NCBI GenBank assembly: GCA_964486045.1
Contig: CAZALK010000015.1
Location: forward strand, 1 to 64,000
DNA: 64,000 bases
Direction: 5' to 3'
From: an uncultured archaeon
GTDB taxonomy: Archaea > Asgardarchaeota > Lokiarchaeia > Sigyniarchaeales > SOKP01
Shown here: positions 6,865-9,166 of the stretch, piece by piece
Layout of the letters: the number at the start of each line of letters is the position of its first letter
Numbering within the stretch: position 1 is the stretch's first letter
Notes under the pieces: model-generated
What the model saw: only the letters and a program-made list of their open reading frames with translations
Told to the model about the DNA's origin: nothing
The model's database searches: none
Made by a program: the position numbers and the translations under genes

Positions 6865-7036
6865 ATAAATTAAACATTCATAACTTATATCTCTATTACT
6901 AAATCTTTTCTCTCATTAAATTTTTAACCTTGAAGATTTATTCACAGTCTAATAACCTATCCCTTAATATTCATCATTAAAATACCATTAAATAAATAAT
7001 AAAATATTCGATTTACAAAAATAAGAGTGATTTGAT

Positions 7037-9166
7037 ACGACTACCCCACTTTCTAACCCGACAATTCCGATAAACAGAATCCAAAAGTTTGAAGATTTTT
7101 ATCAGCTCTTTCAAGAAAGACCTGGGGAGTATAAATACCTTGATCAAATTAATGAAATAATCTCAAAAGGAAGAAATACGTTAATATTTTTTTATGAAGA
7201 TTTATTAGCATTCGATCCTCAGATCGCAGAGAAACTAAAAACTGATCCGGAAACAGTATTAGAAGATGCAACTGAAGCGTTTAAAAATATTATCAAATTC
7301 CAGGGTACATTATTGAGTAATCAAAATTACTTTATTCGGGTTACAACTAAGGATAAGAAATGCCCATTGTTTATACCTTTAAGAGGCCTTAGAGCTAAAA
7401 ATATTGATAGCTTTATTTGGTCAAATGGAATTCTAATTAGATGCTCAACCATCAGACCCAAATTAATAAAAGCTACTTTTGAATGTGTGTTATGTGGGAG
7501 TCAATTTGAGGTAATCCAACTAACATCAAGAATTAAATGGCCTAATTTTTGCAGCAATCAACGATGTAAAGCAAAAACACAGTCAGATTTTAGGCTTGTA
7601 TCAAAAAGCTCAGAATTTATTGATTGGCAGAGTGTTATGATCCAAGAAATTCCTGAAGATTTACCTTCAGGAAGAATTCCTAGATCAATTCAAGCAATTC
7701 TAACACATGAATTAGTTGATACGGTTAGGCCTGGGGACAGAATAAAAGTAATGGGTATATTTAAATCTGTCCTAGCTCAATCAACCAAAAATTATAATTC
7801 AACATTATTCAAAACTTTTATTGATGTCAATTTTATAGATCCTGAAGACAAGAGTGAATCATTAGTTGATCTTTCAAAAGAGGATAAAATAAAAATAGAA
7901 GAATTATCAAGAGAACCTTTGATCCAAAAAAAAATTTCACGATCAATAAGCCCTAGTATATATGGTCGTGATCAATTAAAAATGGCATGTGCTTTAAGTC
8001 TTTTTGGAGGGACAAGAAGAAAGAAACCAGGCGGAGGGTATAAACGAGGTGACCTTCACTTTCTTGTCGTAGGAGACCCTGGCACCGGAAAATCAGAAAT
8101 TCTGAAGGGTACTATTGATGTTTCCCCAAGAGGATTATATACTTCCGGCAAAGGATCGACTGGTGTTGGACTAACTGCTGCTGTAATAAAGGAGGGGGAC
8201 ACAGGGCAGATGAATCTTGAAGCTGGTGTAGTCGTACTAGCTAATGGAGGTATTGCTGCTATTGACGAATTCGACAAAATGGATACAGGTGATCGTTCAG
8301 CTTTACACGAGGCAATGGAACAGCAAACTGTAAGTATTGCTAAAGCAGGAATAGTAGCTACATTAAAAGCTCAAACTTCTATTATTGCTGCTGCTAATCC
8401 ATATTTAGGAAGATATGACAGGTATAAGACACCCACACAAAATATTCGATTGCCACCAGCTTTATTGTCTCGTTTTGATCTAATCTTTGTTGTTGTTGAT
8501 AGACCAAATGCTTCAGAAGATGCCCAAATGGCAGAATTTATTTTGAAGAATGCAATGATTAAGACAGAAGATATTTTTGATGATAACAATGAAGCGGTGG
8601 CTCCAATTCCTAAAGAACTTCTAAAAAAATACGTTAAACATGCCAAAAGAACATGTCATCCCGTTCTCACTGATGAAGCCAAAGAAAGAATAAAAGAATT
8701 TTATTTGGGGTTAAGAGATCAATATGAAAGTGAAGATGCAATAATATCTATTTTAGCACGAAATTTGGATGCTCTTGTAAGGCTTTCCGAAGCGTATGCA
8801 AAAATGGCACTTAGAAATATGGTAATCAAAGAGGACGTAGAAAATATTATTAAATTATTTAAACGATTTCTTAAAGATACTGGTTATGATGAAACTTCTG
8901 GGAAAATTGATATGGATAGAATTTTTGTTGGACAATCAAGAAGTAATCTCAATAGGCTTGAATCTCTAATGAATAGACTTAAAGAAGTATTCGAAGAAAA
9001 TGGCTGGAGACCTCTAGAGAGAAATAATGTGACCCAAATCTTAGATTTAGAGGAAAAACTGGATAAGAAATTCATTGAAAATGCTCTTGAAGAATTAATA
9101 AAAGAAGGGACTCTTTACGAACCCAAAAGTGGTTTTATCAAATTCACAAATAAAGAAGCAGAATAA
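7037..9166 (+). CDS. mcm: Replicative helicase MCM (start extended to ACG 7037)
   Basis: Zn finger CVLCG..CSNQRC, Walker A GDPGTGKS, IDEFDKM, SRFD. The MCM N-terminal helical domain (KFEDFYQLF..YLDQI..YEDLLAFDPQIAEKL..P) is in frame upstream of the track start 7313. Confidence 0.95.
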   Translation, partial: TTTPLSNPTIPINRIQKFEDFYQLFQERPGEYKYLDQINEIISKGRNTLIFFYEDLLAFDPQIAEKLKTDPETVLEDATEAFKNIIKFQGTLLSNQNYFIRVTTKDKKCPLFIPLRGLRAKNIDSFIWSNGILIRCSTIRPKLIKATFECVLCGSQFEVIQLTSRIKWPNFCSNQRCKAKTQSDFRLVSKSSEFIDWQSVMIQEIPEDLPSGRIPRSIQAILTHELVDTVRPGDRIKVMGIFKSVLAQSTKNYNSTLFKTFIDVNFIDPEDKSESLVDLSKEDKIKIEELSREPLIQKKISRSISPSIYGRDQLKMACALSLFGGTRRKKPGGGYKRGDLHFLVVGDPGTGKSEILKGTIDVSPRGLYTSGKGSTGVGLTAAVIKEGDTGQMNLEAGVVVLANGGIAAIDEFDKMDTGDRSALHEAMEQQTVSIAKAGIVATLKAQTSIIAAANPYLGRYDRYKTPTQNIRLPPALLSRFDLIFVVVDRPNASEDAQMAEFILKNAMIKTEDIFDDNNEAVAPIPKELLKKYVKHAKRTCHPVLTDEAKERIKEFYLGLRDQYESEDAIISILARNLDALVRLSEAYAKMALRNMVIKEDVENIIKLFKRFLKDTGYDETSGKIDMDRIFVGQSRSNLNRLESLMNRLKEVFEENGWRPLERNNVTQILDLEEKLDKKFIENALEELIKEGTLYEPKSGFIKFTNKEAE

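Follow-up and report, generated by a model that had tools for sequence, protein, structure and literature searches.

The bacterial gene pcnB begins with AUU. An AUU start is also used by E. coli infC, the gene for IF3, which controls its own translation (Butler et al. 1987, as cited in PMC4705826), and an ATT start is described for ebpA of E. faecalis (PMC4447247). Weak starts let both IF3 and eIF1 restrain their own production, and aIF1 of S. solfataricus discriminates against AUU (PMC4705826). Eukaryotic eIF1 autoregulates through a poor AUG context (Ivanov et al. 2010, as cited in PMC6237735 and PMC4705826), and the available text of PMC6237735 makes no mention of a weak start for archaeal aIF1. 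Among Asgard archaea, an ATT start was inferred for AtubA of the Kariarchaeaceae (PMC13394414), and ribosome profiling of Haloferax volcanii assigned approximately 30% of putative alternative start sites to near-cognate codons (PMC7261190). Reviews list AUG, GUG and UUG as the archaeal start codons and describe Shine-Dalgarno (SD) motifs as rare in Lokiarchaea (PMC7531240, PMC12993045). A literature search, with most subscription papers outside its reach, returned no systematic report of such starts and a single Asgard ATT case. ATA and ATT starts are listed in many mitogenome reports for animal mitochondria. Mitochondrial mRNAs are leaderless, and AUA encodes Met in many mitochondria.

The window, i.e. 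the whole stretch of DNA analyzed here, comprises the first 64 kb of contig C15 from a Lokiarchaeial genome of 5.18 Mb with a GC content of 31% and a contamination of 7.8%. Two small contigs, C40 and C45, have 58% GC within this 31% GC genome; they are likely contamination and were left out of the start models. An earlier note on the window had proposed SD-directed near-cognate starts in five genes. All five SD and codon geometries, as well as the two canonical controls given with them (AGGTGG+6+ATG at 45829 and AGGTTT+6+TTG for tpiA), were confirmed in the sequence, and duplexes between the 16S rRNA 3' end, GGATCACCTCCT, and the five SDs ranged from -6.4 to -10.7 kcal/mol. Ortholog columns upheld the proposal for four of the genes: those of MCM, DUF58 and ORF-2336 matched ATG, TTG or GTG starts (~29 orthologs each), and that of MoxR did so exactly or within a few codons, while GINS orthologs were off by one codon.

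The gene for the MCM helicase (709 aa; 7037..9166, forward strand) is preceded by the SD motif GAGTGA (7025..7030, forward strand), which pairs with the 16S 3' end at -6.4 kcal/mol. Six nucleotides further lies the putative start codon ACG (7037..7039, forward strand), identified by its ortholog column and by a start-model posterior of 0.99. The in-frame stop bounding the open reading frame, TGA 7028-7030, is part of the SD itself, so only the codons TTT and GAT separate stop and ACG. As had been claimed, the frame contains no ATG, GTG or TTG before 7313. This first canonical codon, a TTG (7313..7315, forward strand; residue 93), is taken as the start by the public annotation and yields a protein of 617 aa devoid of MCM_N, the entire Pfam domain (residues 16-87) lying 5' of it. 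Solved MCM structures align from residue 9-15 onward. Only one MCM match, which is intact, was detected in the host genome, and a start at TTG 7313 would thus remove subdomain A from the sole MCM match. The public protein collection (NCBI, Logan, ENA) holds the 617-aa form beginning at 7313, and the exact 709-aa protein translated from ACG was absent from it. Compared with relatives, the N-terminal 91 codons (7040-7312) displayed ~47 third-position and 14 second-position differences, which is a coding-type substitution pattern. Across 29 loci the ACG column was occupied by TTG (14), ATG (8), GTG (2), ACG (3) and ATT (1), and at one additional locus ATG was displaced by one codon from the column. 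ACG was also found at the MCM start of two independent genomes (G046 and G058). The four near-cognate alleles map as four separate changes to well-supported branches of the tree, which implies four independent origins.

Two further features of the MCM gene were noted. An out-of-frame TTG lies 1 nt past the SD, with ATA 7035 in the same frame, and the resulting 13-codon mini-ORF (7032-7073) could compete with the ACG start. Additionally, in about one-third of the family genomes MCM is split around residues 353 and 432 by large insertions that keep the frame open, probably inteins, with open frames of 1140-1785 aa (nine genomes serve as examples); the window MCM is free of such large insertions.

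The MoxR AAA+ ATPase (326 aa; 20893..21885, forward strand) would start at ATA 20905, at a spacing of 6 nt from the SD AGGTGA (20893-20898), and in 28 of 28 scored orthologs an ATG lies in this column or 1-4 codons from it. The public call begins at GTG 20953 and contains 310 aa, and many members of its cluster have 326 aa. The N-terminal mis-annotation foreseen in the earlier note is therefore found for both MCM and MoxR. The DUF58/vWA protein (442 aa; 21957..23297, forward strand) has a candidate ATT start at 21969, again 6 nt past its SD (AGGTGT, 21957-21962), and its first canonical in-frame codon was confirmed to be TTG 22071. As in MCM, the N-terminal region needed by DUF58 is thus entered ahead of any canonical codon, an argument that is weaker for MoxR and ORF-2336. 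Its start column contained ATT (11), ATG (9), ATA (7) and TTG (2), i.e. ATT or ATA in 18 loci, with ~5 switches between the canonical and near-cognate classes on the tree.

ORF-2336 encodes a conserved hypothetical protein of 170 aa (2336..2848, forward strand) present in 39 of 41 family genomes. Its SD and putative ATA start (AGGTGA, spacing 6, ATA 2336-2338; together 2324..2339, forward strand) overlap the end of top6A, the ATA sharing bases with the TAA stop at 2337-2339. The proposed ATAA stop/start overlap with top6A was thus observed, with the qualification that top6A is present there only as a 3' fragment (Toprim domain, residues 285-400; 1983..2339, forward strand), within which the SD of ORF-2336 lies. 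Aligned orthologs of ORF-2336 carry ATG (19), TTG (6), ATA (4) or GTG (1) at the start column. Close orthologs have ATGA where the window has ATAA, a change that, from the aligned sequences, is a simple stop-codon swap in the overlapping top6A frame. In-frame TTG codons occur nearby at 2330 (0 nt past the SD) and 2351. The top6A fragment is 90% identical to a relative and follows a non-coding stretch of ~700 nt in which short segments are repeated (window 1300-2339), and a full copy is located on another contig (C28:1578-2768, 84%). Rearrangement, duplication and bin contamination are the alternatives for this arrangement.

The fifth gene belongs to the GINS family (2858..3432, reverse strand; Atlas features, 0.94) and has the SD TGGTGA at 3432-3427 with two candidate starts, ATA 3421 at spacing 5 and GTG 3430, which sits in frame within the SD. 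Here, a canonical in-frame codon does precede the required N-terminal region, and the public protein (190 aa) begins at GTG 3430. For this gene only, it is conceivable, at somewhat short of an even chance, that the mRNA has no leader or a very short one, with GTG 3430 as the start and the ATA internal. A TATA-like element, TATATAAA, precedes the GTG by 24-31 nt, and the genome-wide start model made no call at ATA 3421. Most orthologs begin with TTG or ATG one codon past the ATA column, where the window has GGG. Against a GTG start, TGGTG(A/T) precedes the TTG starts of several orthologs and so acts as an SD there, and one relative (G011) has ATA immediately 5' of its TTG, so that ATA, at SD spacing 5, would remain if the TTG were lost. 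ATA 3421 is accordingly regarded as a plausible start of the GINS gene.

Association with the SD was evident across the host genome. At ATG starts, GTGA was found at spacings of 4-9 nt. Near the 5' ends of open reading frames, in-frame ATA followed GGTGA 14 times at spacing 5 (4.3 expected) and 15 times at spacing 6 (3.6 expected), and in-frame ATT 17 times at spacing 6 (4.9 expected). This 3-4 fold enrichment of ATA and ATT at 5-6 nt is roughly equal to that of ATG, and ATA was depleted at spacings of 8-11 nt. When the SD, spacer and ATH pattern was simply counted without regard to ORFs, no signal emerged from the genome. SD duplexes of at least -5 kcal/mol in strength were seen at 11 of 18 homology-defined near-cognate starts compared to 90 of 309 ATG starts (Fisher p=0.007, with kin not independent). 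Near-cognate and ATG alleles compared within three gene families did not differ overall in SD strength (p=0.24), and only MCM showed a difference.

Start codons were modeled genome-wide on 3592 long ORFs in two stages, with training on canonical codons followed by opening of the model to all 61 codons; an earlier variant in which every parameter was left free failed to settle on real starts. The SD class of the 61-codon model contained ATG (1415), TTG (355), GTG (102), ATT (95), ATA (77), ATC (53), CTG (21) and ACG (20), with all remaining codons at 11 or fewer. None of ATT, ATA, ATC, CTG and ACG was within the top 20 codons of the no-SD class. TTA was rejected as a start class, being outside the top 20 SD-class codons, and GTA reached only 3.6. 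Near-cognate starts made up 7.4% of the model expectation and 3.5% at posterior >0.8, figures from a model that is blind to near-cognate starts lacking an SD and into which SD association is partly built. Where near-cognate calls could be compared with orthologs, 18 of 18 comparisons (12 genes) fell on a start-type codon, nine of them canonical and nine near-cognate. Other well-supported starts, outside the window, include ATC for a zinc-ribbon protein whose ortholog has ATG (C15, reverse strand, ~103,000) and ATT for an rpl34e-like gene (C5); confident model calls numbered 96 in total.

Simple pairwise ortholog counts were noisy owing to N-terminal indels and were refined. Genes whose ortholog has ATG carried a near-cognate codon in 7-8 of 231 cases here and in 11 of 258 in relatives. 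Since about half of the near-cognate starts are common to relatives and missed by this count, it is an underestimate, and the most likely rate for the host genome and its family, as estimated from sequence, is therefore ~4-7% of genes (~150-270 genes, five codons). The earlier figure of roughly one gene in ten reflects the window, where 4-5 of ~45 genes are near-cognate, above the genome average. Rates were compared among the host genome, four family relatives, and two control genomes plus pooled loci. Model rates in 400-kb samples were 3.9-5.5% for the four relatives and 2.7-7.8% for the host genome. In controls of similar GC, SD-class near-cognate counts were ~2/310 (Methanobacteriaceae), ~1/135 (Woesearchaeota) and 0/228 (pooled Methanobacteriaceae loci). 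The rate was thus approximately tenfold lower in the two AT-rich non-Asgard control genomes, one of which reached 2.1% once the noisy no-SD class was counted. Together with the ortholog columns and the genome model, this difference between relatives and controls agrees with the earlier view of SD-positioned near-cognate initiation as a lineage trait.

Sequence comparison established where the starts lie, which codons they use, their association with the SD, their rate, the contrast between lineages and the repeated origins, and from these we infer decoding by the initiator tRNA, lower efficiency and a cause. The near-cognate codons are thus very probably true translation starts that are placed by the SD, read by the initiator tRNA and tolerated in ~4-7% of family genes. 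Errors of assembly or sequencing, or gene decay, with the true starts at downstream canonical codons, are a highly improbable alternative. Genome contamination of 7.8% and the canonical codons near the GINS and ORF-2336 starts would fit such errors, but identical codons recur in independent genomes (ACG in MCM; ATT or ATA in 18 DUF58 loci), the single MCM match is intact with 91 N-terminal codons evolving as coding DNA, and errors would not prefer an SD spacing of 5-6 nt or one-mismatch codons. Slightly less probable still is reassignment of AUA to Met or editing of the mRNA to AUG, either of which would render the starts effectively canonical. A precedent exists in plant organelles, where ACG starts undergo C-to-U editing, and TiaS (PF08489), the enzyme that enables tRNA-Ile(CAU) to decode AUA, went undetected in 41 of 41 Lokiarchaeia-class genomes and in several other Asgard families; it was found in 57 of 101 genomes of the phylum. 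Internal ATA codons, however, align with Ile in 67.8% and with Met in 2.6% of cases, resembling ATT and ATC, and reassignment of AUA was rejected on this basis. No single reassignment or edit explains the involvement of ATT, ATC, ATA, CTG and ACG. Because AUA is still Ile while TiaS was not found, another AUA decoder is expected, probably tRNA-Ile(UAU), which was not located in the host assembly by searches in which most hits of ARAGORN were false when introns were allowed. Introns are common in the tRNAs of this genome at non-canonical positions (D-loop, T-loop), some tRNAs having more than one, and a tRNA-Sec is located at C15:137,829-137,921.

Relaxed fidelity through aIF1 or aIF2 had been suggested as the origin of these starts, but aIF1, aIF1A, aIF2-beta and the initiator tRNA all look intact on inspection. 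Loss of aIF1 was rejected, the gene being found in 53 of 61 family genomes with its basic loop RKWGR intact. aIF1A and aIF2-beta are present, as is uS9, which ends in Arg, and the initiator tRNA (C1 ~583,602-583,725) has an intron, A1-U72, a CAU anticodon and three G-C pairs. No absent or degenerate part was therefore observed among aIF1, aIF1A, aIF2-beta, the uS9 tail and the initiator tRNA elements, a comparison that leaves room for subtle changes.

The aIF1 gene itself has a near-cognate start in 30 of 30 family loci (ATT 22, ATA 5, ATC 3; never ATG), including the ATH start of the host copy (C1 ~612,390-612,780, reverse strand). In 25 of the 30 loci the Cys knuckle is reached without any canonical codon, and at several loci a stop lies 1-2 codons upstream of the ATT. 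The start column aligns with ATG or GTG of other archaea, including other Asgard families; several other Asgard families start aIF1 with ATA, CTG, TTG or GTG. Among 80 named non-Asgard loci nearly all have ATG, with a few TTG and two CTG. That the family start moves among three weak codons yet avoids ATG suggests that selection favors a weak codon here. The family proteins also contain CSFP instead of the usual CGLP and CASGGT instead of CACGGT, and forms of aIF1 with a different N-terminal extension in place of the N-terminal zinc knuckle were seen at 11 loci in five Asgard families.

In the proposed mechanism, the 3' end of the 16S rRNA (GAUCACCUCCU) in the 30S subunit would pair with a GGTG(A)-type SD and set the codon ~5-7 nt downstream in the P site. 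A normal initiator tRNA (CAU) would then accept a one-base mismatch at AUU, AUA, AUC, CUG or ACG and give a protein with N-terminal Met, less efficiently than at a canonical codon yet in sufficient amount. Most genes would alternate between canonical and near-cognate codons over evolution, mainly where an SD is present, and negative feedback by aIF1 would hold a low-stringency set point. This feedback is the most likely cause by a modest preference, because aIF1, which rejects AUU in Sulfolobus, itself needs an AUU, AUC or AUA start in 30 of 30 family loci. Some Asgard families have ATG or GTG at aIF1, and the feedback would therefore not be phylum-wide. A stringency rheostat in Lokiarchaeia, in which a fixed AUU/AUC/AUA start lets aIF1 curb its own synthesis and ~200 SD-dependent near-cognate-start genes are jointly regulated by the aIF1 level, is a tentative and rather unlikely extension. 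Neutral tolerance without regulation is somewhat more probable than this rheostat, although it falls well below an even chance. Weak starts would then drift in under AT pressure, a good SD would suffice for slow-growing cells that need little protein, and the aIF1 start would be an old frozen accident. The genome GC of 31%, the sporadic terminal changes that produced the near-cognate alleles of MCM, MoxR and ORF-2336, and the simplicity of the stop swap at 2336 all agree with such drift, which for most genes is compatible with the preferred explanation. The controls of equal GC, however, have almost no such starts, so AT pressure alone is insufficient, and aIF1 shifts among ATT, ATC and ATA but never to ATG (30 loci), whereas DUF58 changed class ~5 times. 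On these alignments the recent, sporadic switches of MCM, MoxR and ORF-2336 look like tolerated drift, and aIF1, perhaps with DUF58, appears maintained; expression tuning, as the earlier note had offered, is thus plausible for the latter two and less so for the former three.

In public collections, approximately one in 15-25 Lokiarchaeial proteins may have an incorrect N-terminus. A public MCM without its whole N-terminal subdomain is misleading for claims of domain loss, for the prediction of Asgard protein structures and for their heterologous expression. Contrary to the reviews, the data suggest a concentration of strong SDs at weak start codons. Through its fixed weak start, aIF1 would provide a testable link between the autoregulation of bacterial IF3 and eukaryotic eIF1, and cultured Lokiarchaeia exist.

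Like infC, pcnB and ebpA, the Lokiarchaeial genes combine a one-mismatch start with an intact gene, and a fidelity factor (infC there, aIF1 here) has a weak start. In bacteria few genes are concerned, in contrast to ~150-270 genes and five codons, including MCM, in Lokiarchaeia; the bacterial factor is IF3, whereas the Lokiarchaeial one is aIF1 (SUI1), with putative feedback. Eukaryotic eIF1 is a homologous factor with a conserved suboptimal start, but it keeps AUG in a poor Kozak context reached by scanning, while in aIF1 the codon itself is near-cognate and SD-placed. AtubA, as in the window genes, is an Asgard case with a deposited protein that is too short, an ATT at ribosome-binding-site distance restoring its fold; it is a single gene termed 'rare', reported with no genome-wide pattern. 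In Haloferax volcanii archaeal ribosomes were likewise found at near-cognate codons, although those sites are alternative and were set aside by the authors, whereas the Lokiarchaeial codons are the sole plausible main-ORF starts with conserved position. Animal mitochondria also use ATH starts routinely in many genes, but are leaderless and often read AUA as Met, unlike Lokiarchaeia, which use the SD and in which AUA remains Ile. Relative to these known cases, what is new from the sequence comparisons is the scale, the inclusion of essential genes, the restriction to a lineage and a candidate aIF1 feedback loop.
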